From contig CM102285.1 in the NCBI GenBank assembly GCA_046563655.1, positions 12,338,001 through 12,402,000 of the forward strand: a stretch of 64,000 bases of DNA, in the 5' to 3' direction. Under the pieces are notes generated by a model. It did no database searches and was not told the DNA's origin. It was given only the letters and a program-made list of their open reading frames with translations. The DNA comes from Yuukianura sp. NJ FZ-2021 (taxonomy: Eukaryota). Position 1 is the stretch's first letter. Every line of letters begins with the position of its first letter. Position numbers and translations under genes: made by a program. Of this stretch, positions 24,246 to 59,200 are shown piece after piece.

Positions 24246-24873
24246 TCAACGCGACGAGGATTTCGGTTTTGGAGGAACCCATGATTCGATTTTGGGTTTT
24301 GTTGTTGTATAGGGCACGTACTGATCGGATGTCCCTGACTTGTTTTCGGTGTGGTCAATTATCCAGTCGTATTTGACTCGAGGCTTAACTGTTGGTGGTA
24401 AATCGGTTTTGTAGTGAAGCCAGCCATACCATTCAGCTGGAACCATACTTCCGTCATAGTCCACTCCATGCTTCACGTTGTAATCCACCCATCGGTTCCT
24501 CCCTATGAATTTGACATGAAATGAAACAAAAGTCACCGATTGACCTCATCCATGTAAAGCAAAGAGAAAACGTACGAAATTGGTTTCAATGTCATAATAT
24601 TGAGTTATTACCGTAGAAGTATGCGTTATTTTCGTAGTACTTGTTTCCATACTTGTCTTCTCCAATCAATGTCCCAATCTTCAGTTCTTCGGTCCTGTAA
24701 CACAGTTCAAAACATTTAAATTACTTGAACAATTAAGTTAAAACTGAAGTTAAACATTGAATTAGTAAATTTCGGACTTACCGATATAACGTTTTGAAAG
24801 AATTCCAAACTCCACCATTGGCCCTCACTATTCTAAAGAATTTCGAAACTTTATCCAAGCCAAGCAACGACAT
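24246..24873 (-). CDS. NDUFA12: NADH dehydrogenase 1 alpha subcomplex subunit 12 (3 exons)
   Basis: MSLLGLDK...[25 protein letters not shown]...GRNRWVDY...[15 protein letters not shown]...[17 protein letters not shown]. Confidence 0.95.
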
Positions 24874-25543
24874 TTTCCGACAAACGTTTAGAAAGTATCA
24901 GTAGAAATCGAATCGAAGCAATTCTTAAATTCAAATTCAAAAGAAAACAATTTTAAACTTTTTTTTTGAAATTTTGAATTTTGAAAAATATTATTTTGAA
25001 ATTGCAAATCAAAATACCACTCCCGCCTTTTTGTTTCCGTCGTGTCACGTTCGAACTTCTGCATCTCGGTTTCCACGAACAATAACTGGTAATCGTTCGG
25101 AAAAATATGGAAAGCATAATTAAAAATTATGAAAATGCAATAATTAATTAAAATTAATTAATTTGTCAAAATCTTTCTTTAAAAATTTTTGTACAAATTC
25201 TTACTTACCTTTACAAATTAATTAGTAGACGAAAGCTCAACCACAGCTACAGCGCAGCAGTGTCTCGGACACAAAACTAAAATTCCATTGTTGCTTTTAA
25301 AACAAAGCGTGGGTCAGCTTTGACACTTTAAAATTAATTAATTAATCCCCGAAAACCTCAAAAAAAAAAGAAGATTAGTCAAATTTTGACCCGGAAAAGC
25401 AACTTTACATCGAGTCAGCCAAAATTGCAAAACATACTTTTTAATTTACAAGAAACTGATTAAAACAATGTATGGTCGTAATTAAAAAGTACTGCCAAGT
25501 CCCAGCTTGGAGTTAATAAGGGTGTTGACACTTAACGACTCAT

Positions 25544-25847
25544 AACTGTGGCGGTGACTTGTGGTCCACATTCGGGGAATTACAGGCGTCTATATGTTGA
25601 CCTTAGCAATAGATTGCACTGTCCTGACCTTGAGGAAGTCCCTATGACTAAAGTGGAAGCCGAGTTGCCTATCCCTAAGTTCCCTTCGCTTCCCCAGCGA
25701 ACACCCCCCCCCTACTTCCCCTCGTCAAAATTACCATCCCCCTCCCCACGACCAACCCCCCCCCCACTAGCTATAGGGTAGGGGGTCACCGAACTCGGTA
25801 ACTAAATCGGGATTTACACCAAGTCACTGCCACTAAGTTTTTTTTTT
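25544..25847 (+). ncRNA. RNase MRP-like RNA copy 1 (S-domain deleted, C-rich P19)
   Basis: P1 GTGGCGGTGACTTG (25548-61)/CAAGTCACTGCCAC (25820-33); P2 TCCAC/GTGGA; CR-I GGAAGTCCC; P19 CCGAGTT/AACTCGG; CR-V AACTAAATCGGGATTTAC; T10 terminator; upstream PSE-like element at 25469. Confidence 0.7.
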
Positions 25848-26221
25848 GTGGAAAGTAATAGCTTAGAAATTGTAGCGTAAACGGAAAAAATATGAATCGA
25901 TTTTTGAAATTTTTTGAGATTATGAAAAATTATAAAGCTGTCACAGTAGTTTAAAATTTTTGTTAAAAATGTTTTTCCAGTAGAAGGAAAACCAGAAAAC
26001 GTCACGGGTTTTTTTTCTTCGCTAATTTTCTTCTTAATTAATTTAAAAAAAAATCATAGGTTTGACAAATACAAAACTAAATCACACATTTTACATGACA
26101 AAAGGACCAACGAACTCAACAGGAACTCATGATTTCAATTAAAGTTTTTATATGGTCAAATGTGAAAAGTACAAGTGAGAATAAGGTTGGCGTAAATTGG
26201 AACTTTTAGCGGGGAAAGTTT

Positions 26222-26562
26222 GAATGTGGAAGTGATTTGTATTCCACTTTCGGGGCATATGGGAAGTAGGGTAACCTGGTTAAGGTAACCCGCGAATAAG
26301 CACTTGACCCGGGGAAAGTCCCTAGGCATGGGGGTTAGAGATAACCTTTGGGTACTTAAGGGCTCCATTAAGCCGTGACGTTTAAGAATTGAGCTGGGAT
26401 GACCTTAAGTGGCCCATTTGCCATAGTTTCAGAACCATGTGGAAGCCTCACGATGCTCGACTGCCAAATGCCAGTGCTGACAACACCCAAAATCAAAATA
26501 AGTCTTGTTTGTGAGGTAACTAAATGGGGATTTACACCAAGTCACTTCCACTCAATTTTTTT
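26222..26562 (+). ncRNA. RNase MRP-like RNA copy 2
   Basis: P1 GTGGAAGTGATTTG/CAAGTCACTTCCAC; CR-I GGGGAAAGTCCC; P8-like GGTTA-GAGA-TAACC; CR-V AACTAAATGGGGATTTAC; T7 terminator; PSE-like element at 26149. Confidence 0.82.
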
Positions 26563-26949
26563 ACAACTATTTCCATGAAGAAAACGTAAATAAAAGCAAG
26601 AAAATTATTACCTGATGGGAAGCTAGTACAATAAAGTTTTTGCTAAAAGTTTTTTTTGGTAAAAATTTTGTTAATTTTTGCTAAAAGTTTGATCAAATCT
26701 TTACTAACTGCTTGCAGTGGAAGAAAGTAGAGACACCGAGACAGACATGACAAGTGAAAGGTTTCTCTTTTTTTTTTAAATCGGTTCACCGTAAATTTAA
26801 ATATAAATGGGTTTGACAAATAAACATGAAAAAAATGTTTTGATCACAAAAAGACTAAAAAGCTGGCGTGGTCATGCATGAGTGGAAAGCAAAAGTGAAA
26901 ATACGGTTTAGTATAAATTGGAACTTTTAGCATTTATCAGGGAAAGTTG

Positions 26950-27022
26950 GAATCTGGCGGAGATTTGTATTCCTCATTCGGGGTAAATGCATTTGGTAAG
27001 TTAGTAAATGACTTCCGGCAAA
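26950..27022 (+). pseudogene. 3'-truncated RNase MRP-like copy (degenerate promoter plus first ~70 nt)
   Basis: Degenerate PSE and TATAAAT at 26912, then a 5' segment similar to copy 5 (ATTCGGG...AGTAAATGACTT.CCGGCAAA) that stops before CR-I. Confidence 0.7.
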
Positions 27023-27209
27023 TTAAAATTAAAATTTGGCGAATTTGTAATTTTAACGAGAAGGAATACTGTATTTCGGACCAGTAAAAATTGCAAAACA
27101 TAGTTTTTAATTTAAAGGAAACTGGTTAAAACAGTGTATGGTCGTAATTAAAAAGTACAACCAAGTTCTAGCTTGGTGTTAATAAGGGAGTTGACACTTA
27201 AGGGTCCTT

Positions 27210-27715
27210 AAGTGTGGGGGTGACGGGTGGTCCACTTTCAGGGATTTACAAAGCTGCCTATTGCAAACCGCGTAGGCAGCGCAGTTCTGCCTGTTGTTGT
27301 CCTGAGGAAGTCCCCAGGCATAGAGGTGTAGCATACCCTGGGCCCTTAAAGGGTCCAGTCCACTTGACTTGGACTCCATAGGCTATGACAATTAGCAGCG
27401 GGTGTTAATTGAGCTGGGAAGTCTAAGTGGTGGAATTGCCTTAGTTGAGACTAATGTGGAAGCCGAGTTGCCCACGTCCATCATCGAGAAACGGCCGGAC
27501 CGGCCTAGGCTAGGAGGAACTAGGAAGATCCTAGGTGGAATGCTTAGGGCTAGTACAGTTCCTCTCCCTAAGTACCCTCCCCTTCGTCCAAACCACGCTG
27601 CCGAGCGTACCCCCTCCCCCCTCTGCGACAGCCGACCTGGCTATAGGGTAGGGGACACCGCACTCGGTAACTAAATGGGGATTTACACCAAGTCACTTCC
27701 ACTCAATTTTTTTTT
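27210..27715 (+). ncRNA. RNase MRP-like RNA copy 3 (longest, 205-nt P19 domain)
   Basis: P1 with G.U pairs; P3 TCAGG/CCTGA; CR-I GGAAGTCCCC; P19 CCGAGT/ACTCGG; CR-V; T9 terminator; PSE-like element at 27135. Confidence 0.78.
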
Positions 27716-28106
27716 CCAAAATTTTGACGTAAACGTCGCAGCAACAAACTGAAAAATTACGGTACGGAACAAACTGACGGTAAACTTGCACAAGACTTTT
27801 TAAAGAATTAAATACATATATGAATCAAAAATTTGGTAAAAGCTGCAGTAAGAAAAAGCGGAAAGATAGAAATGGCACGCCCAACTTTTTTTCTTCGTCG
27901 ATAGTTTTGTTCTTTAGCGTAAATTAAAATATAATTATGGGGTTCACAAATATGAATAGAAAATTAAATTCTAAATTTTCGATGACAAAAGTACTGCGGA
28001 ACTCAACAAAAATGGTTTTTTAATTAAAGTTTGTGTATGGTCGTATGTTAAAAGTGCAAATGAAAATAAAGTTGGTGTAAATTGGAACTTTCAGCGAGGA
28101 AAGTTT

Positions 28107-28492
28107 GAATGTGGAGGTGATTTGTGGTCCACTTTCGGGGCAATTGCGATGAAAGGAAGCCCAGTAGGGAAACCTAGCACTTGACCCGGGGAAAGTCCCT
28201 AGGCATGGGGGTTAGAGATAACCTTTGGGTACTTAAGGGGTCCATTAAGCCGTGACATTAAGAATTGAGCTGGGATGACCTTAAGTAGTCCACATCACAT
28301 GCCATAGTGTCAGAACCATGTGGAAGCCTCACGATGCTCGATTGCCATTACAAACAACAACCAAACACCAAACTCACTGAACTCACGTTCAGTGAATACA
28401 AAACTCACGTCAGTGAATACTACAAAACACAGTCTTGTTAGTGAGGTAACTAAATGGGGATTTACACCAAGTCACTTCCACTCAATTTTTTT
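28107..28492 (+). ncRNA. RNase MRP-like RNA copy 4
   Basis: Same core as copy 2; A/C-rich 120-nt P19 with an internal duplication; T7 terminator; PSE-like element at 28034. Confidence 0.82.
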
Positions 28493-28902
28493 ACAACTAT
28501 TTACATGGAAAAATGCGAGATCAGAAACCAGAAAATTACCAACCGATGGCAAACTTTTTTGCTAAAAGTTTTATTAATTTTTTGCTGAAAGTTTTATTCA
28601 ATTTTTGCTAAAAGTTTGATTAAATTTTTACTGTTTGTAGTAGAAGAAAGCAGAGAAACGGAAGCGGAAACGACAGGTCAAACGATTCTCCTTTTTCAGT
28701 TCGATTCATCGCAAATTAAAATATAATTAAGGGTTTGACAAATGAGCATGCAAACTATTAATTACACCTCTTTTGACAACAAAAGGACTAAAAAGCTTAG
28801 TTAAAATGCACATTTTCAACTAAATATTGTTTATGGTCATACGTGAAAAGTGCATGTCAAAATACCATTGCTTTAAATAGGAACTTTTAACAGGGGAAGT
28901 TC

Positions 28903-29315
28903 GAGTGTGGAGGTGATTTGTGTTCCACATTCGGGTAATTGCGTAGCGAGGGTTTAGTCAGTAAATGACTTGCCGGCAAAACTAACCCGAGGACAGTCCC
29001 CAGGCATGGGGGTTAGGGATAACCTTGGGGACACTAAGGACACTAGTTAAGCTGGGACACTTTACGTTGAGCTGGGTGACCCTTAAGTGGCCCACTTGCC
29101 ATTGCACAGGACGATGTGGAAGCCTTACGATGCATGGTGACGGGTGCTCACTGAAGGGGCAGGGTGCACTTGTGGGGATTGCCGTGCCTCACATCTGTGA
29201 AGTGCGGAAGTCGGCGTACGACGACTTCCATCACGAGGCCTTTGTGCAAGGGAGGTCTCTATTCGTGAGGCAACTCAATGGGGACTTACATCAAGTCACT
29301 TCCACTAATATTTTT
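28903..29315 (+). ncRNA. RNase MRP-like RNA copy 5
   Basis: CR-I variant GGACAGTCCCC pairs with CR-V variant TGGGGACTTAC; structured 148-nt P19; T5 terminator; PSE-like element at 28830. Confidence 0.8.
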
Positions 29316-29387
29316 GCAATTTAAAAATTTTAGAAACTATAAATATGTGTATTAGTTACAACTTTATAGAAAAAGTGAAAGCTTTAC

Positions 29388-29587
29388 TATAGTTGGGGCA
29401 ACCAAAATAGACCCAAGTTTTTCTAGAGGATACTCGCACTCACGCCCTTCTCCAACTGGCACCCGCTTCTCCACTCAACTCCAAAATGAACCTCCCATCT
29501 AAGAAGAGACTGCCAGAAGCTTTACAGAGGTGTGAGTGCGAGTATCCTCTAGAAAAACTTGGGTCTATTTTGGTTGCCCCAACTATA
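29388..29587. mobile_element. Tc1/mariner-like MITE with 56-bp perfect inverted arms (including TA ends)
   Basis: 29388-29443 is the exact reverse complement of 29532-29587. It begins and ends with TA (probable TSD) and has an 88-bp non-coding core. Confidence 0.8.
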
Positions 29588-29863
29588 CAAATAAATATAA
29601 TACCCCAACTATACATATACAAAGAAACACCTTTACTTTCCTTTTCACCACACAGATCTATTAGACGCAAATAGAAAATTCAAACAATTGGAAAAATTTA
29701 TAATTGAAAAGTTAGCTTTTTTCTTTCACGCAAAGAAAGAAAAGTTAGTAGATTCTTTCACGGACTAGCCTCAGTCTCTTTTAAATGTAGTGGATGGTCG
29801 TCTGTGAAAAGTACATGTAAAGATTCCACTGGTTTAATTACGAACTTTTATCAGGGAAAGTTT

Positions 29864-30139
29864 GAGTGTGGAAGTGACTTGTGTTCCATGTTCGGGGCAG
29901 GCTCTGATACTGCGAACTTTCCAGTAGAGAAAGTTTGCTGGAAATTGACCCGAGGAAAGTCCCCAGGCATGGGATTAGAGATAATCTTGGGGGGTACTTA
30001 AGGGTTCCGCTAAGCTGTGATATGCAAATTGAGCTGGGGTGACCTTAAGTGGACCATTTGCCATAGTTAATACACATGTGGAAGCCTAAAGAAGGTAACT
30101 GAATGGGGATTTACACCAAGTCACTTCCACTCAATTTTT
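29864..30139 (+). ncRNA. RNase MRP-like RNA copy 6 (minimal P19)
   Basis: Perfect P1 GTGGAAGTGACTTG/CAAGTCACTTCCAC; CR-I GGAAAGTCCCC; P8-like GATTA-GAGA-TAATC; P19 CCT-AAAGA-AGG; T5 terminator; PSE-like element at 29791. Confidence 0.83.
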
Positions 30140-30454
30140 ATAAAATTGTTTTCATGAATGAGAATTAGCGAAAAAGTGAGAAAATTATCAACCGGCGATT
30201 AACTAAATGATTTCCAAAGTTTCTTTTTCTCAAAATATCTTTTTCGTAATAAATTAAAACTAACAGTGAGCTTATAACAAATAATATTACAGAAATAATA
30301 TAAATATTACAGAAACATTGTAATTAAATTGTCTAATCCGGACCAGAGTTTGATTAAAAAGCATATTTTCATTAAGTTCGGTGTATGGGCATCAGTGGAA
30401 AGTACAGGTGAAAATGACGCTGGGATAAATAAGAATTGAAAGCGTGAAAAATCT

Positions 30455-30787
30455 GAATGTGAAAGTGACTTGTGTTCCACTAACGGGGCAATTGCATGGA
30501 TCGGGATCAAGTGCCATTGAGTGGCTCTCGATCCGTGCAACGACTCCGAGGAAGGTCCCCAGGCATGGAGGTTAGAGATAACCTTGGAGACACTTAAGGG
30601 CACCACTTAAGCTGGGACACTAAGTTGAGCTGGGTGACCATTAAGTGGCCCGCTTGCCATTGCACAGGAAGTTGTGGAAGCTTCACGACGTCAGTGAAGT
30701 CGAAAGTTAATCGGCTTCTCGACTGGTTTAAATCGTGATGGGTAACTCAATGGGGATTCACACCATGTCACTTTCTATTTAATTTTT
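30455..30787 (+). ncRNA. RNase MRP-like RNA copy 7
   Basis: P1 GAAAGTGAC/GTCACTTTC; 15-bp P3 extension TTGCATGGATCGGGA/TCTCGATCCGTGCAA; CR-I GGAAGGTCCCC; CR-V AACTCAATGGGGATTCAC; T5 terminator; PSE-like element at 30382. Confidence 0.8.
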
Positions 30788-31004
30788 GTTAAATTAAGAC
30801 TATAATAAATGAAACAAAAACTCAAAGTTTAAAGTGCATCACATTCACAATTTCAAAGTTTTTTTTTGCAAGGACTTTTGGGAATAGGGCGAACAAATCA
30901 ATTATTATAAATTATAAAAATATAGTAGGAAATGAAATTTCAACATAAAATGGCATATTATCTTAAGGTTCATAGTCCAAAGATGCATATTAAATTAAAT
31001 ATTG

Positions 31005-31051
31005 TGTATGGTCATATGTGAAAAGTACAGGTGAGGATTGCTGATTATAAA
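31005..31051 (+). promoter_or_regulatory. Type-3 Pol III promoter (PSE-like 25-mer plus TATA); representative copy, repeated before every RNA in the array
   Basis: Consensus TGTATGGTCRTNNGTGAAAAGTACA starts 76-79 bp before the P1 helix in all nine copies. An AT-rich TATA-like box lies ~30 bp before the inferred start. Confidence 0.75.
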
Positions 31052-31076
31052 GTAGGATCTCAAAGCAGCGAAATTT

Positions 31077-31498
31077 AAGTGTGGATGTGACTTGTGTTCC
31101 ACTTTCGGGGTATGGGCGTCTGGGCCAAGGATTGCCCTGTAGAGGCAATCTTCTGCTGTCGGACGCCAAAAACCCGGGGAAAGTCCCCAGGCAAGGGGGT
31201 TAGAGATAACCTTGGGACACTTAAGGGCTCCATTAAGCTGGGACACTTAAAGTTGAGCTGGGATGACCTTAAGTGGCCCACTTGCCATAGCACAGGACGA
31301 TGTGGAAGCCTCACGATGCATGGTGATGGGTGCTCACCGTAGAGGCACGGGGCATCTGTGGGAAGTACCGTGCCTTCCCGGATAGAAGATTTAAGAGACG
31401 GCTTGCCGTCTTAAGACCTTGGCCTTCGGGTAAAGAGGTCTGTATTCGTGAGGTAACTAAATGGGGATTTACATCAAGTCACGTCCACTTAATTTTTT
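31077..31498 (+). ncRNA. RNase MRP-like RNA copy 8
   Basis: P1 GTGGATGTGACTTG/CAAGTCACGTCCAC; CR-I GGGGAAAGTCCCC; multi-hairpin 145-nt P19; T6 terminator; PSE-like element at 31005 and TATAAA at 31046. Confidence 0.83.
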
Positions 31499-31998
31499 GA
31501 AAAAGTTAAACAAAGTTAAAAAAAATTTCATTTTCTAACTAAAAGTAAAATATTAACTATTTTAACTAATATTAACTATTTTACTTTTACCCTCATTAAA
31601 AAATGAAATTTTTTAACTTGCCAATTCGGGTTAATTGAATTTACTATTTTTAAAGCACAAAATGAAAGGCGGAAGGCCCATTTATGTTTTTCTTTCTTTG
31701 GAGCGGCTGTTATGTAATGAAAATCAAGTGCTATGCAAAATGCAAGGGGAGATTTTACTGGTAGAAAATAAAAATAACCTTGTTAAAGGTAATTTACTTG
31801 AAACTGTACCATTTAATTAAAATTATTTTTAAACAAATTCATAAAAATAAGAATAGAAAGTTTCTGCTGAGTGGAATTAAAGTTAAGCAAGAAAGGTCAA
31901 GTCAGGTCAATTTGTCAAAAGCTATGTATGGTCATGCAGGGAAAGTCAGTGAAGTGTATGTGTTGGTACAAATAGGACAGGGAGAAAAGGTGAAACTA

Positions 31999-32273
31999 AA
32001 ATGGAAGTGACCTGTGTTCCACTTTCGGGTTGTTGTCTAACAGTCATGTGTTGACAGTTGGGTTAACCTGGGGAAAGTCCCCGGGCATCTAGGTAGAAAT
32101 ACCCTGGACACTCCGTGTTCAGCCCAATCACCCCAATGCTTTCTTATAGGCTGGGACAAATAATTGAGCCGGGAAGATGTGGGTGTAGGGTTAGCCATAG
32201 CACAGTTTAATGTGGAAGCCTTTAATTAGGTAACTCAATGGGGATTATACCAGGTCAATTCCATTAATTTTTT
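31999..32273 (+). ncRNA. RNase MRP-like RNA copy 9 (most divergent from the others, closest to canonical size)
   Basis: P1 ATGGAAGTGACCTG/CAGGTCAATTCCAT; CR-I GGGGAAAGTCCCCGG; P8-like GGTA-GAAA-TACC; CR-V AACTCAATGGGGATTAT; T6 terminator; PSE-like element at 31925. Confidence 0.82.
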
Positions 32274-34886: not shown

Positions 34887-37296
34887 ATGGCAGAGTCGTA
34901 CGATAACTTGATATTGTAAGACTTTTGTTTTTGGATGTTTTTGCGATTTCCAGTTTGCCACTGTTCGCTGTATTTAAACTCATGAATTTTTTGTTTTAGG
35001 GTGGAAACTGCTGATAAACTGTTTATACATCCTGGGAATCAGACGAGTAGTTCAAGGTTTCTGGTGATTAATCGTGTAACAGATGAAATTAGTTTAGGAA
35101 GTAAGACTTCATTCACGTTCGATTGTTGAATTGGGTAGGATCGATGATAATGTTTTCTTCTGCTTCTTTTCAGCGGACATCAATACGATTCCCGATTCCG
35201 GGCGGATACGAACGGAGTATATAGCTGGTGTAATTGGTGTAATACGGCTAATTGCTGGTCCGTATTTAGTTCTTGTCAAGACAGCTACGCGTGTTGGTGA
35301 ATTCAATAGTCATGTTATTTGGCAAATGAAACAGCATGAAGTTATTCCATTCAAGAGATCAGATCTGCACATGACAGTTCAGCAGGTAGGACGATCCGAA
35401 CAATCCTTGTAGAAAAGTGGATCAATTCAATTAAAGGAAGAAGTAATTAAGTTTTGTTATTTTCTTTTAGCGCCAATTCAACCAATCGTACCTGGAAATG
35501 CTTGACTCTGTACTATCTACACCTTACTTCTATTACTCCCATACTTACGACCTCAGCCACAATTTACAGTCGCTGAATTTCAATTCTCCGGATTTCTTCC
35601 AGGTATGGGTTTACACTGAAGCGTGCAGTGAATTTCATAATCGCTATGTTTTATATTCGTAGCAATCTGTAGTTGCACGGGCAGACGAAAGATACGTTTG
35701 GAATACATCACTTATCCGAGAATTCCCGGCCAAATCCGAATTCCATAACTTTTGCATCGCGCTGATTCATGGATGTAAGTTTCAAGTGTTTTCACTTTTC
35801 AACTGCTGTATTCCTCACTTTTTGTGATTGTTTTGATATTTTTAGTTGTGTCTATAAGTGATGTGACTGTGAATTCTCGTCGGCTCAAGCTAATACTCAT
35901 CTCTCGTCGCAGTTCCCGACGTCCAGGCACTCGGTACTTCTCTCGGGGAATTGATTCCGACGGCAGTGTTTCAAATTTTGTAGAAACGGAGCAGATCGTG
36001 GACTGTAGCGGCGAAATGTCATCTTTTGTTCAAATTCGCGGCTCTATTCCACTGTACTGGACACAGAAGCCTAACCTACGTTACAAACCCAAACCCACCG
36101 TGGTGCCAGCCAATCATTCCGATGCATTTGCGAAGCATTTTGAAGACCTTGTTCTACGTTATAACCGGATCGTGTGTATTGACCTTGTGAACCAAACAGG
36201 ATCAGAAGCAGTACTCGAGACAGCATTTAGCCAACAAGTTCAGTCTGCCGGCCTACCCAATATTAGATACGAAGCGTTCGACTTCCACCACGAATGTGCG
36301 AATATGAAATGGCACCGTCTTGACATCCTCACCAATCGCCTAACAAATGAACTGGACGATTTTGGATATTTTCTGCAACTAAGAGGTCAGAGGCAGCAGT
36401 CGCAAGAAGGCATTTTCAGAACCAATTGTATTGACTGTCTCGACCGAACTAACGTCGTACAGGGCATGCTGGCGAAAATCAATTTAGAAAAAGTTCTTCA
36501 AGTAAGTGCAAAATTCGTTGATTTCACGCTTTTTCTTTATAAGTTATGGAAAATGGTGATAATGATAATTTTTCTTTGCCAATTTCTCCAGAGATTTGGA
36601 ATTCTTCGTGACCATGAGAAAATCTCGGATCACTCGCACTTTGAATATTTGTTCAAAAACGTTTGGGCTGACAACGGAGACATTGTGAGCATTGAGTATT
36701 CTGGAACGGGTGCACTGAAAAGTGATTTTACAAGAACCGGAAAGCGGAACTTCGCTGGAGTTATGCGGGACGGGTACAACTCTGGCGTCAGATACTTAAA
36801 AAATAATTTCAGTGATGGACATAGACAGGTTCGTGAAGCTTCGATCTCCATTTGCATTTCCATTCCAAATTATTGAATTATGTTAACAATGGTTTCTGTT
36901 TTTGTGGTAGGATGCTATCGATTTGTTTCTTGGCAACTACTCGGTTGATTCAGACGAAGGTAACGCTGTTGTCTGCCCACTGGATAAAAATCGTGATTGG
37001 AAATTCTATTCGGTATAAAATCAACTTGCCTTCGATTTAAATCGATCAGAACGCTAAAGTTGAAGCACTTATTGATTGTATTTCTTGAATTTCAGCTTCC
37101 ACTGCTCCTTTTGGTATCGCTGATAATGACGACCATGCTGGCAATTCTTCCAGCGGAGTACAGCACGGAGAATTTGATGTACCTTCTCTTTTGGGGATCG
37201 ATGTTTCTTGCGTCTGGTGCAGTAATTCTCGCTTTCGGAAGAGACTATGTGGATAACCCTGTGTTATGTCCAGGAAACGACCCGACGGACCATTGA
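34887..37296 (+). CDS. SACM1L: Phosphatidylinositide phosphatase SAC1
   Basis: LISRRS...GTRYFSRGID...NFVETEQ, SFVQIRGSIPLYW, catalytic RTNCIDCLDRTNVVQ, YSGTGALKSDFTRTGKR, and two C-terminal TM helices. Confidence 0.95.
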
Positions 37297-44016: not shown

Positions 44017-46203
44017 TTAAATTGTGTCGATTCTTTTCTTGAGATTGTACATTTTGAGCAACATGGCTGCAATAATCTGTAAATCAATCCATCATTGTTC
44101 AATGAACCAAAAATTCATAAAATCAGAACATTTGAGAATAAGCCGGAAATTGAATCGCAGTTACTTACGACTAGTGTCGCTAATCCAATAATGAACAGCG
44201 TTCCCATACGAAATCCAACTTCGTCGTACAAGATGCCTGACACGGTGGGTCCAATGGTATTTCCCAAAGAAAATGTAGCAATGTACAAACTGGACACCAA
44301 GCCGTAAGTGCTTGAGTCATCAGGAAATCCTTCCGCACTAATCAAAAACTACTGTTGAATTTTTTCAAACTATTTTTTTTTTGAAAAATACAGCTGAATT
44401 AAATATTGCAATTCTTACATCGCTGCCTCCAGTGCATGGTGGTAAGCAGTCATAATCGCACCACCAATTCCAATGTTCATCACAGAGTGACCTACAAATC
44501 CTGTCCAGGCAGCACTGGCAAAATAAATACAAAATTTTGAAAATTCTACATTAAAATTTTCAATTTTTGAATTTTCAAATTGATTGAAAATTTTTGATGT
44601 TACGTACGATTCATAAGGAATGAATGGCAGTGGACCAAGGAACGAGTATCCGACAATCAGAATCAGTGCAGCGATCATCATAATGTTGGATTTGGAAATG
44701 ATGCGATGATCTGCCAGGTAGCCCCAAAGTGGACAAAATACTGTATACACGGCAGTACCGCTTGAAAATAAAGCTCCCATTAAACTTGCACTGAGGTAAC
44801 TGTACTGAAATTTTGAAAATCCACAAATTAGACATTTGGCATCATCCAGGACCTTTGACCTTTTGATTACGTGAAGTGAAAGTGTAGCAGTAACAAATCC
44901 GATTGAAGCTGATGTCGTTGACAAGCTAAAAATGACTAGCAGAACTGTCGGAATGGTCAGCAGCTTTCGAAAACCTGGACGACCAATCCCCGGAAGTGTT
45001 TGACTGTCAGCTACTTCCGAATCATCAGAATTCAGCGTTTCAGCGCTGACGGAGTTCCGCTGTACTTTGGGCACAAAGAGGAAAATTGCTACACCAGATG
45101 CAATGATACAGAATCCTAAAATTGCGTAGGTCATGGTGAATCCTATGGTCTATCAAAACAAAATTTGAAGTACATAAAGAAATTTTGAAAACCTAATTTT
45201 CAGAGTTTCGAAAAATTTGAAAAATTCTTTCTTTTTAACTCACTTCCATAAGGATTCCACATACAGCAGGACCAAGAATTGCTCCAATTCCGAAAAATAC
45301 TTCGAAAATTGCCTAAAATATTAAAAAAAAAATGAGAATCTTTTTGCAATTAATTTGGAATTTTGAATAATTTTGACTAGACAAAATTACGACTGCTGTT
45401 GAGATTAATCCAGGAGCCTCCATGGAGTAAATTGTGAAACATGCTGGATAGATTCCTCCATCGAAAATTCCAGTTACGACTCTCACTAAAATTGACGCTC
45501 CTACGAACAACGTCCGATTTTGTATCAACGCGGTGCATCTGTTTTGAAAAACGAAAAACAACTACTTTGAAAAAAAAAACATGTTACATTTAAAAAAAAA
45601 ACAACTAATTTAACACCGAAAATTCTTACCCGAATAATACAGCACAAATTCCAATTCCTAGAAACGAAATTGTAACAACCCTTTGCGGTCCAATTGTGTT
45701 TAGCTAAACCGAAAATCAAATAGTATTTTTCGAACCTTCAGCAAAATTTTGTTTTAAAACTTTCAAAATTTCAATTTTTCTGAAAAGCTTACCAGTTTCT
45801 TTCCATAAAGAAAAGACACGCAAAATATAGTAAAATCTTGAGATGCAAATACAATTCCAATTTCAGTTGCTGTTGCTCCTTTCTCACTTGCCTTCAAGTT
45901 CAACAAAAATTGGAATTTTCAAAATCACAAATACTCCGAACACTTCAAACAATCCAAATTTAAAGTAAAAAATCAAACTTTTAAATTTTTAGACGTTTAA
46001 CGAACCAGTGGTGGATAGAATGGGCCGCCAATGAGTACCACCGCAGCTCTGAAGATATTTGCCAATCCATAAAACGCGAAAATCACAATTTGCTTTTTCG
46101 TAAATTTCATGACGACTGCATCCTTGACACGTTTTGCTCCAGAATTTTTGGATTCCTCTGTTCGTATACTTTGCTTTACAATTTCTGTTTCCATTTCTAG
46201 CAT
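44017..46203 (-). CDS. MFS-type transporter, SLC18B1-like, multi-exon
   Basis: Multiple TM segments; GPFYP, GPAVCGILME, PLWGYLAD, FLGPLPF, GFPDDSSTYGLVSSL...LGNTIGPTVSGILYDEVGF. Confidence 0.8.
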
Positions 46204-46969: not shown

Positions 46970-49029
46970 CTAGTGATCAAAACAGAAACAGTAATTTCTG
47001 AGAAACGCTTGAACACAAGAACTTTGACCTCCATAGGAATTGACTCGATTAATTTCACCAAAAAATGACCAATCAGTTCCGTTTTCAACAAGCAGCGTCG
47101 CTTCAAACACGCCATTTCCCGGTAACGTTTCAATCATAATCAAAAGTTTATGAATTTTGGAAATTATATCATCACTTTTTTGAAAAGAATCCATTTTGAG
47201 TAAAACGTCAGCACTCAGCACTTGACTCAATTGAAGCTTAGCACACTGTCGAGATGCAGATACAATTGAATTGATTTGGTCCAGAACGACCTTTGACCCG
47301 GCTTTGGCCAACTGATGATCCAGTGGAAGTGGCTGAAAAGCAGCTCCATCTTGATCACAAATGCACCAAGTAGAGTCTATTCCAGCGTCTTCGCAATGTC
47401 TATTCCACGGAATTCGGCTGAAATGACTTCTTCCTTTACCTCTGCTATTACCATCAGGATAGACTAAACGCTTTTCATGATCCAGAAGGTCACGCAAAGT
47501 TTCGTGAAGGTCAAATGGAGAACTGAGACGTTGACGATTAACTCTAAGATTTGTGACAGCTTTGGGATATTTTTCGATAAACCATTTTGGTAAAACGAAA
47601 AACAGAAATGGCATTTTCACTTCCAGTGCTCCTTGTTTCGTCTGTCGAAATTTTCCATAACGTTGTCCATGGTCACTCACGAAAATCAGCGCTGTCCGGG
47701 TCAAGTGACCTTGACCTTCGAACCACTTCAATGCTTCTAAAAGTACTTCGTCTGCAGAACTAGGGAAATCCAATCGCTCATGAAATCCAGCAGTAGCCCA
47801 AAGGAGTTGAAAATATGGCTGGCCTAACTTGGTCATTTGATTCGCGAATTTCATAGCATAGTCTAACAACATTTCAAGGCCAAGACGCGGTCCAAAGCAA
47901 AACGGGAAACCGTTGACACCGGAGTGGCCCATTTTCCGGTCCATGAGATCCATCAAGTCACGGACATAGTCAAGTGTCGGTTTTTTACCAAATCCTTTTT
48001 TGTCATATTCAAACATGCCTTGTCGAACGATATCCTCAAGAAAACTAGTGACATAGCCTTTTGCAGCATAGTCCGACCAGATGAAGTGACATTCGTCAAA
48101 AGTACTGCCAGTAGTGGGCCAACATATGTCTTTGAGCTGGTCCACACTCTGACCTGAAAGAATTGGCACAAGATTTGGAAAAGTTTCGGAAGCTACGTTA
48201 ACATAAGATTCCATTTCAATCGCTGACAGATTCGTTTTAAGGTAGTCGTATGTCAAAGGCATGTGACGAATCAAGTTCATGTGAGACACCGAATCCAGTC
48301 CAAGCAAGATTACATTCAAAATGTTGTTGTGCTGCTGACCTTTGACCTTGCTTTCGCCCTCAAAACGCAAGAGCAGCAACATGTCAACCAGATTTTGAGC
48401 TTCCGAGTCTTTTTCATCAGAACAAAATATTGAAATGAGTTTAACTTCTCCCGAAATTGGCGTGAAATTGGCAATTAGCGGAACACAATCATCTCTGAAA
48501 ACAAATGTTTGAAAAGACAAAGATTTCTACTGTGCCAGTAGGGTAAGTTCAAAACTTAAGTTAATTATTTTCTGCTTTAATTAAAATTTAATAATATGAA
48601 GTTAACTCACAGTATCATAGGAGGAAATGCTTTGTAGCAACAGTTGAACCATCCAACTTCTTCCGGTTCACGCAGAACAACTAAATTCGAATCCAAATCA
48701 GTTCCGAAAATTTTCTTCCACCGTTGTCCCTCACAGATGACTCGGTCACTTTGCAAAAAATCATTATCCACGCCCAAAAATGCATCCAAACGAGGCAAGC
48801 GACAGGTTAAGTCATTAACCTCTATATTGCTTAGAGTTTCTTCTGAAAAGTCCACAGTAACAGTTTCAATATTCCAAGAAATCAAAAAATAACACTTACC
48901 TGACCGATTTGAGTTAAAAACCACTGATTTTCGGGAATTTGGAAAAATTGTATATAGGGTGTATAATGTCAGTAGCGCGACCAACAGTACAAAAAATGAT
49001 AATCGCCTTCCGTCAGCTTTCAGTAGCAT
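46970..49029 (-). CDS. DUF229 / alkaline-phosphatase-superfamily membrane protein (3 exons)
   Basis: N-terminal TM anchor; LNVILLGLDSVS...HMPLTY, ETFPNL, FVSDHGQRYG, RLSSPFDLHETL, RHCEDAGI...WCIC, GNGVFEAT, RVNSYG...YCFC. Confidence 0.85.
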
Positions 49030-56289: not shown

Positions 56290-59200
56290 TTAAAGCTCGT
56301 ACACATCCCTCTGTTTGTAGTTCATCCGAAGTGGACTACATTTGATATTAAATCGAGTCTGTAGAGTTGAAGAAGCCACTTCATTACTTCCTCCTGTTGA
56401 TGAACTGTACATGTTATATCCCGGAATAATATGAACACGAACATCACTTCCAGCTCTCAATGGATCTCTTGGTCTCCGGGTCAGAGCCACCGAAGTTTTA
56501 CAGCAACAGTAATGAAATAACTGGACATAGCACCGTCGAAAGTCGCGATTCGCCAAGAGATTCACAACACTTGACAAGCAGGAGGGAAGAATAGCTGGCC
56601 AAATGATCAAGCGTTGCAAGTTGAGAAATGGATCGGCCGGAAGTGGGGTCACGGGAGACGTGGAGGCCGTTGTCATTAGGAAGTGGCGATGCTGGAAGTC
56701 CAGGGATCTCGTTTCTGATTGGTTAAGAATACTTAGAAGTGTTGCAACAAAGGACGGAAGCCATATAAGAAGTCGCACAAGCCAGTTCCATCCGTTTGTA
56801 GCCACAAGAGCAAATTCTCTGGACGTTAAAAATGGTTTCGGTTTTTTCCAGGCTCGCATGATACAAAGTGTTTTTAGAAATCCAAATCCACCGAGGATTA
56901 CAAAAGAAAGCGTACAAATTCCATAGACGGTGAGTGATTCAAATAGGAGTTGATCATTGAGACGATGATTTGTCATAGCTGGAGGTGATTTTGGTTTCTC
57001 ACAAATTGCCACCATGATTTGTGGCATAAATAAAAAATGGACTAGGACAATAATGCCTGCCAGAAGCCAAACAGTTAGATTGAGAACCGTAACTTGCCAA
57101 ACTGAACAAATCGGTTCTTTGCGAACAAACATCGTTTGGGGAGGTAAAAGTAGAAGTGATGGTGGATATGACTGATGATGGTTTTGGAAACTGGTAACAG
57201 TCTGTTGCTGAAATTGATTTGAGGAATGTGCTGTTCCAGTTTCGGATGCTGATGCTGGCATAGGGTAGTGTCCTACGTGAGAATGTTGTGAAGGAGTCTG
57301 GAACAGTTGGCGGTCTCGCTGTTGATCAGCGAGGCGTATGGATTTGAGGCGTAAAAAATTTTCAATTCCAATAATGGCTGTAAACATGGCGGCGGTGAGA
57401 CAAGACACAGAGCCAAAACCATACTGGAGTCGACAAATATTCTCTGAATCTTCCATTTCGCCGAGTACAGCTACTGAAGATGCTGGAAGAACTATGCCAG
57501 TGATAAGGAGGTCAGCTAGAGTGATGCTGGCTAGAAACGAGTTACCTGAAAATAAGGAAAGCCAAAGGTCAAAGGTCAAGCCGAGAAAATCATTCACCTG
57601 GAATACTATTTTGTTATACTTTCAGTCTTGCGTCTTTCGGCACTTCTTTTTAGGACGTCAAACGAGTAACAGAAAACATAGTTTTTAAAAAACGTCAGCA
57701 GGCAAACCTTGGCAGTGGAGAAAGTTTATCTAGCTTTGGTTGTTTTTTGAAAGCTTGAACATAGTAAAAGCCTATGTCGACAAATTTTGAAATATTCATT
57801 GCATATAAGTTGAAAGCCAGTCTCACAAAGTTCAAACATGTCAAAGGTCATTTCGTAAATAAATTTCAGATTTCGACCCACCATCCATTCATTATTCGAC
57901 AATACAGCTTTAGGCGGCTTTAGGCAAGGATTCAGAAATAAGCATTAAGGAGGTTGTCATTGATTAAGCAATTAAAAGATGAGTCGTGCTAAACCGCATC
58001 AATTTTTCATTCGGGTTCTCGGAACTTTCGAATAGAGGTGAAAGCTGTTGTTTGAAAATTCGCGTGATTTTGGTAATTTCCTGTTAAATGAGTAATAGGC
58101 TACCTGAAACAGGTTTCCAGTGATTCACGCAGTAAGAATACTTTGTGTTGTTTTCCAAAACCTCAGAAGGTACAATTATGACTAACCCTTGGATCCCAAA
58201 ATCGAAGCTATTGACTTTTCTATCCGATTCATGACAGCTTCATCTATTATTAACAAGCTTTCAAAAGCCAAAAAGTTACTGCCAAAGTTTGAACTTTTAG
58301 AGATAGAGTGCTGTGCGACAGGAAAAGGCATGACCTTTGACCTCTCTCGGGACTGTAGAGGTCACGCATGAAATTGAAAGGTCAATAATCAATATTCGAT
58401 TAATGGAAACAAGTAACCAATAAATATGTGTAAAACACGCTCCAAAATATTCAAAATTCTTTTCTGGTAAAGTTCAATGCCGGCTGAAAAAAAGCACAAA
58501 TCGGCTAAGATAAAATTTTGTAATTTTCTTTTTAATTTTTTGATTTGCCGCAGTGAAGGTAACTCCGAGATTTGTTTTAAAATCTTATGACAAAAAAAAA
58601 CTTTAAAAAGTTGATCCAATGCTAATTAATTTTTCAAAATCTCTTTTAAAAAAATGTTTTTTTTTTTAAAATGCGGACGTTTTTGTGAGGAAAATCACGG
58701 ACCAATGAGTTCCTTAACTGGAAAATCCGCACATTTTTTAAAAGTCAATTTTAAAATAATTTGCCTTTGTCTAACAAAACCTTTAGTAATGCCTCTGTGC
58801 ACTCCAGGAGCTCCAATATTTTAAAATTTCCTACTTTCCAAAAAAAGGAAAATCAAACCTTAAAAAAAAGGAGCTAGTGAAAACCGAAAGTTCCTTTAGT
58901 TGATCCACTTCTGGGAAATTTCCACTCCAAATCATTATTGCAGTCAAGTGAAAAGAGTCTTTCACCAAAAATCATTTCATTCTTCCAATTCATAATCCAG
59001 GAGTTGACTAGATCCTCGAAAGCCAAGGAAAAGTTCATGAACTTTGACATTCTCCGATTTGGCTTTCTTTTCATTAAGTTTCTGGAAGATATTTCTTTGA
59101 AATAAAAACCAGTTAAAATCTTCTCCTGAAATTGAACTGGAAGAAATGAGTTTTTCTGGTATAAAGCCATAGCGGGAAATATTGGGAATGGAATGAGGAC

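Follow-up and report, generated by a model that had tools for sequence, protein, structure and literature searches.

The RNA of RNase MRP (Rfam RF00030) is normally encoded by a single-copy gene. In the stretch of DNA analysed here, 64,000 nucleotides long and called the window below, positions 25548-32264 on the forward strand carry paralogues of this gene in tandem: nine diverged full-length copies and one that is truncated. The array is 6.7 kb in length and is flanked by the genes for NDUFA12 and for a SacI-domain protein. Its host is a pancrustacean arthropod, from a poorly sampled group. The array is also present as DNA in sequencing contigs from two organisms: contigs of run X1 span its gene-spacer junctions with 0-4 differences, and contigs of run X4, from the second organism, carry copies 7, 8 and 9 with their flanks. 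No orthologous array was recovered in other species. The features are as follows, each copy with its score against RF00030 where there is one and with the PSE-like box upstream of it.

25548..25833, + strand: copy 1, RNase MRP-like RNA gene that lacks the central domain (P5, P8, P9, P12, CR-IV); box 25471-25492
26226..26551, + strand: copy 2, RNase MRP RNA gene lacking P9, 53.3 bits; box 26151-26172
26954..27025 (end approximate), + strand: truncated tenth copy, limited to a P3-like stretch and, of P1 and P2, the 5' strands; marked by direct-repeat families D4 and D6
27214..27702, + strand: copy 3, RNase MRP-like RNA gene in which P19 carries an insert of 205 nt, P9 forms a hairpin (at 27338) and the P8 loop is degenerate, 31.3 bits; box 27137-27158
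28111..28481, + strand: copy 4, RNase MRP RNA gene with copy 2 as its sister, 38.5 bits; box 28036-28057
28907..29305, + strand: copy 5, RNase MRP-like RNA gene whose core is altered and whose P19 has an insert of 148 nt; box 28832-28853
29868..30130, + strand: copy 6, compact RNase MRP RNA gene whose P1 follows the consensus, 52.2 bits; box 29793-29814
30459..30778, + strand: copy 7, RNase MRP-like RNA gene whose core is altered, 30.3 bits; box 30384-30405, 3 mismatches
31081..31488, + strand: copy 8, RNase MRP RNA gene whose P19 has an insert of 145 nt, 26.2 bits over a partial alignment; box 31007-31028, 0 mismatches
32001..32264, + strand: copy 9, of all copies the closest to a canonical RNase MRP RNA gene, with P9 (hairpin at 32104) and a short P19, 82.5 bits, E 2.6e-21, full model 1-266; a more diverged box from -74, at about 31927
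25471..31028, + strand: span of the PSE-like boxes of copies 1-8, consensus TATGGTCRTANGTGAAAAGTRC, one box 74-77 nt upstream of each copy

The family was assigned by cmscan with competition within clan CL00002, where MRP was retained as the best family at all seven matches. Three of the nine copies score above the Rfam gathering threshold of 50 bits for RF00030 and four fall below it, while copies 1 and 5 give no Rfam match at E<=1. These scores are lowered by the long P3 and P19 inserts. The anatomy of the genes is nevertheless legible helix by helix. P1 pairs at all 14 positions in copies 1, 2, 4, 5, 6 and 8, entirely by Watson-Crick pairs in copy 6. Copy 3 has lost two pairs (12/14), copy 9 has one G/A mismatch, and copy 7 has one U/U mismatch and a bulged U at the end of the helix; the range over the nine copies is 12-14 of 14 if that bulge is counted, and copy 7 has 11/14 without it. 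The 3' strand of P1 is identical in copies 2-6. P2 pairs at 5-6 of 6 positions throughout. The P4 pseudoknot, formed by CR-I (GAAAGUCCCC) with CR-V (AAUGGGG...), is complete at 8/8 in copies 2 (including one U.G), 3, 4, 6 and 8, and has 7/8 in copies 1, 5, 7 and 9. CR-I keeps its consensus in copy 8, has one A fewer in copies 1 and 3, and reads GGACAG in copy 5 and GGAAGG in copy 7, the substitutions of the last two falling within the GAAAG motif. One nucleotide past CR-I (GUCCCC) lies P5, which is GGCA/TGCC in copies 2-8 (5 bp in copy 3), GGC/GCC in copy 9 and missing in copy 1.

The loop of P8 is GAGA in copies 2, 4, 6, 7 and 8, GAAA in copy 9 and GGGA in copy 5; in copy 3 it is AGC, so that the purine loop is lost, and copy 1 has no P8. 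The loop is followed by a U that is able to pair with the A in front of the loop; the loop is purine-rich, and a strict GARAR pentaloop is present in no copy, copy 9 included. Between P5 and P2 there are 15-16 nt with two AG candidates for CR-IV, and the register is ambiguous. ATAG stands directly 3' of P5 in five of eight copies, TTAG in copy 3 and ATTG in copies 5 and 7. On the other side, AGNNNNAT adjoins P2 in six of eight copies (AG, with an A two nucleotides before P2), and in seven of eight the distance from a conserved AG to the 3' strand of P2 is 8 nt instead of 6. Aligned by Infernal, copy 9 needs a 2-nt insertion at CR-IV, with low posterior probability. P3 folds as a hairpin in all nine copies (z -2.3 to -5.8), its distal sequence being unalignable. 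A base helix of P19, 3-8 bp, is likewise found in all nine, with a P19 length from 11 to 205 nt and a mere 3-bp hairpin in copy 6. P9 is kept only in copies 3 and 9, and six copies are without it. Two members are plainly reduced. Copy 1 keeps P2, P3, CR-I, P19 and CR-V, and P4 with one mismatch, but only 9 nt separate its CR-I from the 3' strand of P2, and everything normally in between is missing. The truncated copy is cut off after P3 and has PSE-like and TATA-like boxes of its own upstream; 3' of it, from 27068 onward, the sequence and the 5' flank of copy 1 are homologous (repeat D10).

Is each copy laid out as a gene of its own? At up to 3 mismatches, TATGGTCRTANGTGAAAAGTRC matches the 64 kb eight times, where 0.00 matches are expected; every match is on the + strand and lies upstream of a copy. 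With the diverged box of copy 9, a conserved upstream box is found at -74 to -77 in 9/9 copies, together with an A/T-rich box near -30. Downstream of P1 there is a run of T5 to T10 in all nine full copies, T10 in copy 1 and T6 in copy 9. Within the nine genes (3126 nt) no T4 run occurs, where 7.66 are expected in shuffled sequences (P=0.0004); seven A4 runs lie inside the genes, and T4 runs occur at 16 per kb in the spacers. An upstream PSE with a TATA-like box, an oligo-T end and the lack of internal T4 make up the sequence signature of an snRNA-type (type 3) Pol III gene, which can do without an internal promoter, and all of these are found here. The layout is that of genes transcribed by RNA polymerase III from snRNA-type promoters, and the boxes would be the promoter elements.

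The copies are far from uniform. Over 228 core columns they are 55-91% identical, that is, they differ by 9-45%, while the flanks of non-sister copies are 38-63% identical and the spacers are unique. Copies 2 and 4 reach 91% identity over these columns, with flanks at 81% and 73%. The tree of the copies is poorly resolved, five of its six inner branches being open. Its longest branch (0.54) belongs to copy 1, and copies 5 and 7, both with ATTG, group together with support of 85/88. Gene conversion may contribute to the similarity of the cores, to judge by the identical 3' strand of P1 in copies 2-6.

Were the helices maintained after the copies separated? A curated set of 40 pairs, or 339 cells across the nine copies, contains 7 cells compensated on both sides, 23 changed on one side but compatible with pairing, and 12 broken. 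Two null models, each of which keeps every copy's own number of substitutions, give means of 1.27 and 1.03 compensated cells, and under neither do any of 20000 simulations reach 7. Broken cells number about 30 under the nulls, so that the observed count is under half of expectation. The covariation across copies that had been proposed from the sequence therefore exceeds both nulls. Each of the seven two-sided changes is found in one copy only, which indicates that they arose after duplication; the number of independent events is approximate because the tree is poorly resolved. Part of the count rests on the curated register, namely the P3 strand of copies 1 and 3 and the bulge in copy 7. In an uncurated MAFFT alignment, 16 pairs are altered on both sides against 3.1±1.5 after shuffling (0 of 500 shuffles), and controls with the partner strand slid along the alignment give 1-7. 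In the same raw alignment 93.6% of cells are paired, against 30-54% with slid partners. More covariation is seen in P12, where U-A became A-U in copies 5 and 7, and in P9 between copies 3 and 9. What is more, the P19 arms of the sisters copy 5 and copy 8 keep 36/36 predicted pairs in both, with none broken. As far as can be judged from sequence, these results support selection on the helices after duplication in most lineages.

Most of the individual changes listed in the sequence-only reading are indeed in the DNA. The P1 strands lie where that reading placed them: with up to 3 mismatches allowed, the window has 28 matches where 6.05 are expected, and 25548-32264 accounts for 17 of the 28. 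In P1, pair 5 is changed from A-U to C-G in copy 1, and in that copy only, and pair 4 from G-C to A-U in copy 7; copy 9 has two compensated pairs, pair 1 (G-C to A-U) and pair 12 (U-A to C-G). The proposed U.G at pair 6 of copy 8 is true of the window sequence. Position 31086 is T there and G in contigs of both X1 and X4, so this pair may be polymorphic. P8 does read GATTA/TAATC in copy 6, a G-C to A-U change. The TCAGG/CCTGA form of P3, in which a G-C at the base becomes A-U, is present in copy 3, but it needs the 3' strands of copies 1 and 3 to be shifted by one column relative to MAFFT, whose raw alignment has no two-sided change in P3. The contrast in P19 between CCGAGT/ACTCGG in copies 1 and 3 and CCTCAC/GTGAGG is likewise real, yet it may reflect one segment replacement and not point covariation, because the whole insert differs. 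One item does not hold: TTAAG/CTTAA in copy 8, offered as a compensatory change, is a palindromic stem, the outer P12 helix common to several copies. The TTAA flanking copy 8 is out of register, which rules it out as an extension of P1. Finally, the reading had concluded that most paralogues were functional after duplication and are not decaying pseudogenes. The selection on helices behind the first part is borne out, and "not decaying" is too strong in view of copies 1, 3, 5, 7 and the tenth. It had missed the loss of the central domain in copy 1, the truncated copy itself, and the 12 broken cells, among them P1 pairs 12 and 13 of copy 3, 12 of copy 7 and 7 of copy 9.

These observations are probably best explained by a tandem family of RNase MRP RNA genes, specific to this lineage, that evolved by birth and death while selection kept the helices intact. 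Each copy would be a small transcription unit of its own, with the PSE-like box at about -75, the A/T-rich box at about -30, an RNA start at P1 and an oligo-T terminator. The RNAs would share a catalytic-domain scaffold of P1, P2, P3, the P4 pseudoknot (CR-I with CR-V), P5, P8, P12 and P19, on which the distal P3 arm and P19 would be free to vary among copies. Copy 9 would be the canonical gene. Copies 2, 4, 6 and 8, which have an intact core and probably form a clade that lost P9, are plausible active genes, and copies 3, 5 and 7 have kept the helices with conserved core nucleotides changed. Copy 1 is probably dead or strongly derived, and it and the truncated copy would be dead or have lost the role of an RNase MRP RNA. 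The sequence itself shows which family the copies belong to, how the genes are built and that substitutions which preserve pairs are in excess, and from this we infer transcription, assembly into RNPs and activity today.

Could a single working gene account for the array? Copy 9 might be the only one that works and the other eight non-functional DNA duplicates, in which the helix pattern is ancestral or due to gene conversion or chance. Its 82.5 bits stand against at most 53.3 for any other copy, it alone keeps P9 with copy 3, several copies have lesions in the core, and decay is plain in copy 1 and the fragment; moreover, most species are described in PMC1796607 as having one MRP RNA gene, with pseudogenes in human. 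However, duplicates free of constraint would hardly collect seven copy-specific compensated pairs, a number never reached in the simulations matched for substitution load, nor would they show the deficit of pair-breaking changes, or keep promoter boxes and the absence of T4 in nine copies while the flanks of non-sister copies became near-random. We regard this explanation as unlikely. A similarly low probability goes to the proposal that sub- or neo-functionalisation has turned the copies into isoforms, of which several would be co-expressed as distinct RNPs: the P9-less clade, the clade of copies 5 and 7 with an altered catalytic core, and copy 1 as a non-catalytic scaffold or decoy. Compensation is indeed found even in copies with core lesions (P1 of copy 7, P12 of copies 5 and 7, P1 of copy 1), the P3 and P19 arms differ strongly and yet each folds, and the shared ATTG and the grouping of copies 5 and 7 suggest that their lesion is older than later changes that preserved structure. 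On the other hand, the compensation may predate the lesions, and the long branch of copy 1 is expected under relaxed constraint.

Tandem genes under helix selection also fare better than two readings that dispense with selection or with the array. Template switching at the DNA level between the arms of inverted repeats is known for close quasi-palindromes, and P1 does form a 14-nt inverted repeat in the DNA, so paired changes might arise in this way. Yet the arms are 235-460 nt apart, compensation is found in P3, P8, P12 and P9 too, and the one-sided changes are mostly compatible with wobble pairing, unlike what a copying mechanism predicts; we consider this very improbable. Still less credible is an assembly artefact in which haplotypes or scattered copies were stitched together. 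Logan contigs do join paralogues (29116 to 31444, and 31238 back to 28980), and these joints could be variants or graph artefacts, but core differences of this size, unique spacers, the X1 contigs over gene-spacer junctions and the X4 contigs with copies 7, 8 and 9 and their flanks argue against it.

How does the array compare with known systems? In variant snRNA families and tandem snRNA arrays, too, each small-RNA gene has a promoter of its own and the fold is preserved among the variants; the array here differs from them in being of another RNA class. In the literature searched, no comparable family of RNase MRP RNA variants in an animal was found. More than one MRP RNA gene per genome has been noted, according to Woodhams et al. 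2007 (PMC1796607), in plants, with data in reference 34 of that paper, and in Strongylocentrotus purpuratus, with five closely related sequences that are possibly assembly artefacts. Whereas the sea-urchin copies are close relatives, those in the 6.7-kb array are structurally distinct and old, the flanks of non-sisters being unalignable. Extra, partly defective copies like copy 1 and the truncated one recall the human RMRP pseudogenes mentioned in the same source (PMC1796607). Unlike these, the array copies have their own upstream boxes and terminators, which implies that they arose by tandem duplication at the DNA level, and most of them keep all helices by compensation.

With RNase MRP RNA (RMRP / NME1; RF00030, CL00002) the copies share P1, P2, P3, the P4 of CR-I and CR-V, a P5 adjacent to CR-I, a purine loop in P8, P12 and P19, as well as the layout of upstream promoter and oligo-T. 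They differ from it in their number, nine in diverged tandem, in the six that are without P9, and in a P19 of up to 205 nt. The hallmarks given in PMC13184271 are a P5 next to CR-I, a P8 pentaloop 5'-GARAR-3' and a six-nt CR-IV with conserved A1, G2 and A7; in the array the P8 loop is a tetraloop-like GAGA or GAAA followed by U, and the AG spacing is 8 nt, not 6, in seven of eight copies. Nuclear RNase P RNA, of the same clan, has in common with the copies the pseudoknot core of CR-I, CR-IV (a candidate in the copies) and CR-V, P1-P4 and P19, and its 8-nt CR-IV (PMC13184271) resembles the 8-nt AG....AU spacing seen here. It differs in what sets the array apart as MRP: besides the preference of cmscan at all 7 matches, the P5-type stem at CR-I and the purine-rich P8 loop are MRP hallmarks in the same source (PMC13184271).

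Across the nine tandem copies of the RNase MRP RNA gene (c1 to c9), there is a significant excess of helix-preserving substitutions. What kind of genes are these copies? The Rfam scan of the window gives three matches to RF00030 (RNase MRP RNA) above the gathering score, and four more, all sub-threshold, come from a permissive scan of 24-34 kb; at all seven, the best clan member kept is MRP and not RNase P. No Rfam match for c1 or c5 was returned by the permissive scan of 24-34 kb, and both can be aligned to the other copies across helices P1, P2 and P19 and conserved regions CR-I and CR-V. The unit borders come from a repeat finder and from a search with the P1 motif of an earlier sequence-only reading of this DNA. 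There are nine full-length units, all on the forward strand, and a truncated tenth copy:

25548-25833, forward strand, c1, full-length unit
26226-26551, forward strand, c2, full-length unit; RF00030 match at 26229-26547, forward strand, 53.3 bits, above gathering score
~26954-27025, forward strand, tenth copy, truncated; P1 and P2 5' strands and a P3-like stretch only
27214-27702, forward strand, c3, full-length unit; RF00030 match at 27217-27698, forward strand, 31.3 bits, sub-threshold
28111-28481, forward strand, c4, full-length unit; RF00030 match at 28114-28477, forward strand, 38.5 bits, sub-threshold
28907-29305, forward strand, c5, full-length unit
29868-30130, forward strand, c6, full-length unit; RF00030 match at 29871-30126, forward strand, 52.2 bits, above gathering score
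30459-30778, forward strand, c7, full-length unit; RF00030 match at 30461-30774, forward strand, 30.3 bits, sub-threshold
31081-31488, forward strand, c8, full-length unit; RF00030 match at 31151-31469, forward strand, 26.2 bits, sub-threshold
32001-32264, forward strand, c9, full-length unit; RF00030 match at 32004-32260, forward strand, 82.5 bits, above gathering score

The truncated copy has its own upstream boxes and a P3 similar to that of c5. It breaks off against DNA that starts at 27068 and shares homology with the 5' flank of c1; this suggests that a segmental duplication of the c1 unit landed inside it. Judged by its sequence, the array is a family of RNase MRP RNA genes with multiple copies that have diversified in structure.

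The TATGGTCRTANGTGAAAAGTRC box has eight matches with at most three mismatches in the 64 kb, against 0.00 expected, and all of them lie upstream of c1-c8. A conserved upstream box is found at -74 to -77 in all nine full copies, the c9 version being more diverged, and each full copy has an A/T-rich box at about -30 and a run of 5-10 T directly downstream. Inside the nine genes, T runs of at least four are absent from 3126 nt, compared with a shuffle mean of 7.66 (P=0.0004); such runs number 16 per kb in the spacers, and seven A4 runs occur inside the genes. Upstream boxes, an oligo-T end and the lack of internal T4 are the known signature of snRNA-type RNA polymerase III units. The layout of each copy matches what would be expected of such a unit.

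How well does each copy keep the features of an RNase MRP RNA? According to the available text of PMC13184271, the hallmarks are a short P5 right after CR-I, a GARAR purine-rich P8 pentaloop, a six-nucleotide CR-IV (called universal) and an invariant pseudoknot. P5 is present in c2-c9 as GGCA/TGCC (GGC/GCC in c9), and P4, the CR-I/CR-V pseudoknot, has 7-8 of its 8 pairs in every copy. An RNAalifold fold of the central domain, pairing CR-I with the region before CR-IV, was rejected, the P4 pseudoknot and P5 being preferred. The strict GARAR pentaloop is found in none of the copies; the P8 loop is GAGA in five, GAAA in c9, GGGA in c5 and AGC in c3. CR-I has its consensus in c6, c8 and c9, ends in U (a U.G pair) in c2 and c4, is one A short in c1 and c3, and contains GGACAG in c5 and GGAAGG in c7. 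Directly after P5 stands ATAG, but TTAG in c3 and ATTG in c5 and c7. Among c2-c9, the 8 nt preceding the P2 3' strand match AGNNNNAT in six of eight copies (32204-32211 in c9), and an AG 8 nt before P2 and an A 2 nt before P2 are each conserved in seven of eight. By motif there are two AG candidates for CR-IV, the ATAG beside P5 or the AG 8 nt before P2; the span of the latter to P2, 8 nt, is the CR-IV length given for RNase P and not the six of MRP, as far as the available text of PMC13184271 goes. P9 occurs in c3 and c9 only, and the other six copies run P8 straight into P12. In c1, which has a P4 mismatch, only 9 nt separate CR-I from the P2 3' strand, and P5, P8, P9, P12 and CR-IV are therefore missing. 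As far as such features tell, c9 is the canonical copy, and c2, c4, c6 and c8, with their cores intact, are plausibly active. The structure of c3, c5 and c7 seems maintained, and they are doubtful catalysts, while c1 and the truncated copy are read as dead as RNase MRP RNAs.

The sequence-only reading had pointed to compensatory base changes across copies as a sign of selection on RNA structure. This observation is confirmed and is statistically sound. In P1, the window strands contain the listed changes of c1 (pair 5, A-U to C-G), c7 (pair 4, G-C to A-U) and c9 (pair 1, G-C to A-U; pair 12, U-A to C-G), and the U.G at pair 6 of c8 is in the window as well. At 31086, in c8, the window has T, and G is found in the main contig of run X1 (depth 66.9 of 85.8) and in the contig of run X4, from a second organism; either the pair is polymorphic and compensated, or the other haplotype has a mismatch here (partner at about 31483). 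The other helices gave TCAGG/CCTGA at the P3 base of c3, GATTA/TAATC in P8 of c6, and CCGAGT/ACTCGG in P19 of c1 and c3 against CCTCAC/GTGAGG. The TTAAG/CTTAA proposed for c8 is no compensatory change: it is the outer P12 stem common to several copies, or flanking TTAA, and as a P1 extension it was rejected, since the register of P1 is not kept. P1 also has mismatches that the list had passed over (c3 pairs 12 and 13, c7 pair 12, c9 pair 7), and that of c7 has in addition a bulged U near its end. The two P1 substitutions that are c1's own are exact partners, so the P1 pairing of c1 was once selected, after its split from c3.

Does the number of such changes exceed chance? The curated set has 40 pairs (P1 14, P2 6, P3 base 5, P4 8, P8 7), or 339 cells, a cell being one base pair in one copy. 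Both bases are changed with pairing kept in 7 cells (two-sided), one base is changed with pairing kept in 23, and 12 are broken. When the 3' letters were shuffled within columns, 1.27±1.0 two-sided cells were obtained and 7 was reached in 0/20000 shuffles. A second null, in which the transition and transversion numbers of each copy were kept and scattered over its own stem positions, gave 1.03 two-sided cells, never more than 6, while 29.5±3.0 cells were broken; 12 or fewer broken cells occurred in 0/20000 simulations. Because the curated register favours pairing, the count was redone on the raw MAFFT alignment (A1; 54 pairs, 7 helices, 453 cells). Here 93.6% of the 453 cells are paired against 89.8±0.5 in shuffles (0/500), and 16 pairs are changed on both sides against 3.1±1.5 (0/500). 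When partners were slid by 1-3 columns, 30-54% of cells were paired and 1-7 pairs were two-sided. The raw alignment misses the two-sided change in P3, since c1 and c3 are one base short and MAFFT sets the gap in CR-I, not at the P3 junction as in the curated register; in its helices 5 and 6, some cells are supplied by c1 even though c1 lacks homologous sequence in that part. In view of both flaws, the robust core is P1 (5 pairs), P3 (1), P8 (1) and P19 (4), the four P19 pairs being one lineage. In addition, P12 changes from U-A to A-U in c5 and c7, and in P9 several pairs differ between the hairpins of c3 and c9, each of which forms 8 bp. The P19 extension of c5/c8 has 36 predicted pairs, none of them broken and 7 with one-sided, wobble-compatible changes. 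The P3 arm, whose distal sequence is unalignable between copies, closes as a hairpin in 9/9 copies (z -2.3 to -5.8 vs mononucleotide shuffles). On past structural selection the sequence-only reading was right; on present function it was overstated.

Between non-sister copies, the flanks on both sides have 33-63% identity in global alignment, near the level of unrelated AT-rich DNA, whereas the core (228 columns) has 55-91% identity between copies. Terminal branches reach 0.54 in c1, 0.43 in c9, 0.23 in c3 and 0.22 in c7, with 0.15 in c5 and c6 and about 0.05 in c2, c4 and c8. Near-random flanks beside similar cores, together with the long branches, indicate that the family is old. Sister pairs are c1/c3 (flank 85%) and c2/c4 (flanks 81% and 73%, core 91%); c5 and c7 are grouped with tree support of 85/88, and the remaining tree is unresolved. 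In all nine copies the core and the promoter boxes have been kept, and internal terminators have stayed absent. In the metagenome contigs, the CR-I...P2 pattern had no match; the CR-V pattern gave 89 loci and no orthologues, and the two loci with a CR-I-like word upstream looked like chance, without P1 or CR-V context.

Could the array be one functional gene with eight dead duplicates? This is disfavoured, as the compensations are copy-specific, broken pairs are in deficit, the promoter boxes are conserved and T4 runs are lacking. A DNA-level template switch might also produce paired changes, but the arms are 235-460 nt apart and wobble-compatible one-sided changes dominate, which makes it unlikely. 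An assembly artefact is unlikely too, because contigs of two organisms (X1, X4) carry copies with their flanks; the array DNA is present in both, with at least a few differences. Some X1 contigs link c5 and c8 across 2.3 kb in both directions (29116/31444 and 31238/28980), and these joints stem either from copy-number variation in the array or from artefacts where the de Bruijn graph meets shared words.

Going by what is established for RNase MRP, any RNA expressed from the family would be expected to adopt the P1-P4 pseudoknot core, to associate with the shared P/MRP proteins and to cut pre-rRNA within ITS1, and the array would supply several RNA variants differing in the P3 arm, the P19 arm and P9. 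Sub- or neo-functionalised isoforms would be allowed by the data. We think it improbable, taken as a whole, that one array expresses distinct MRP RNA isoforms (a P9-less clade; c5/c7, with core nucleotides changed and helices still selected; c1, without the central domain) and that the family may carry the RNase P-like 8-nt CR-IV spacing. If it were so, an animal would have sub- or neo-functionalised its RNase MRP RNA, giving for instance stage- or substrate-specific RNPs, or non-catalytic scaffolds competing for the shared P/MRP proteins.

The RNA of RNase MRP is catalytic and essential, and its RNP is not known to contain more than one RNA. In the available text of Woodhams et al. 2007 (PMC1796607), the gene is single-copy in most species examined, plants have multiple genes, and humans have one true gene and pseudogenes. 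Mutations of the human gene lead to cartilage-hair hypoplasia, according to the accessible part of PMC8814244. In contrast to the single copy of most species, here are nine individually promoted paralogues in an old array. No report of a diverged tandem MRP array in an arthropod was found in the literature searched, and none appears in the available portions of PMC1796607, PMC13184271, the springtail genome paper PMC5644144 or the schistosome ncRNA paper PMC2770079; Piccinelli et al. 2005 and Dávila López et al. 2009 may hold copy-number data. The nine old paralogues make a natural mutagenesis series for RNase MRP RNA, with helices that must pair (P1, P2, P3 base, P4, P5, P8, P12, P19 base) and tolerant parts (distal P3, the P19 insert, and P9, gone in six copies). 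If several copies are expressed, the series would offer rare isoform diversity in the RNase MRP RNP and would allow one to test in what way a shared P/MRP protein set is tuned by peripheral RNA domains. If c9 alone is active, it would still be a clean birth-and-death example for a polymerase III gene.

The array is intergenic, with an NDUFA12-like exon on one side and a SacI-domain gene on the other. The neighbouring genes are:

24246-24545, reverse strand, NDUFA12-like exon
35098-36876, forward strand, SacI-homology phosphatase, several exons, gene start near 35.1 kb
44415-45134, reverse strand, piece of an MFS transporter
46970-48520, reverse strand, DUF229 protein, 516-aa ORF
56290-57597, reverse strand, rhodopsin-type GPCR

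The best named homologues of the DUF229 ORF are from the springtail Allacma fusca (39% identity) and from beetles, bugs, cockroach and crayfish (33-39%); identity to the spider mite homologue is 25%. This spread of homologues points to a pancrustacean arthropod of a thinly sampled lineage as the host. In the c5-c6 spacer, a foldback element at 29388-29587 consists of two 59-nt arms with 98% complementarity, separated by 82 nt. In both runs the summed contig depth over it is about 25-fold higher than in the adjoining bins (X1: 5148 vs about 200). Several contigs bypass it, among others by a joint from 29388 to 29636; in appearance it is a MITE-like repeat of polymorphic presence. The spacers 3' of c2 and c4 contain, at 26645-26705 and 28548-28632, a short repeated motif, TTTTTTGCTAAAAGTTTTATTAA-like and about 23 nt long, which is tandemly doubled after c4 (repeat families D16 and D19). 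C-rich low-complexity tracts with runs of 9-10 C, at 25700-25770 and 27575-27625, lie inside the P19 inserts of c1 and c3 and in no other copy.
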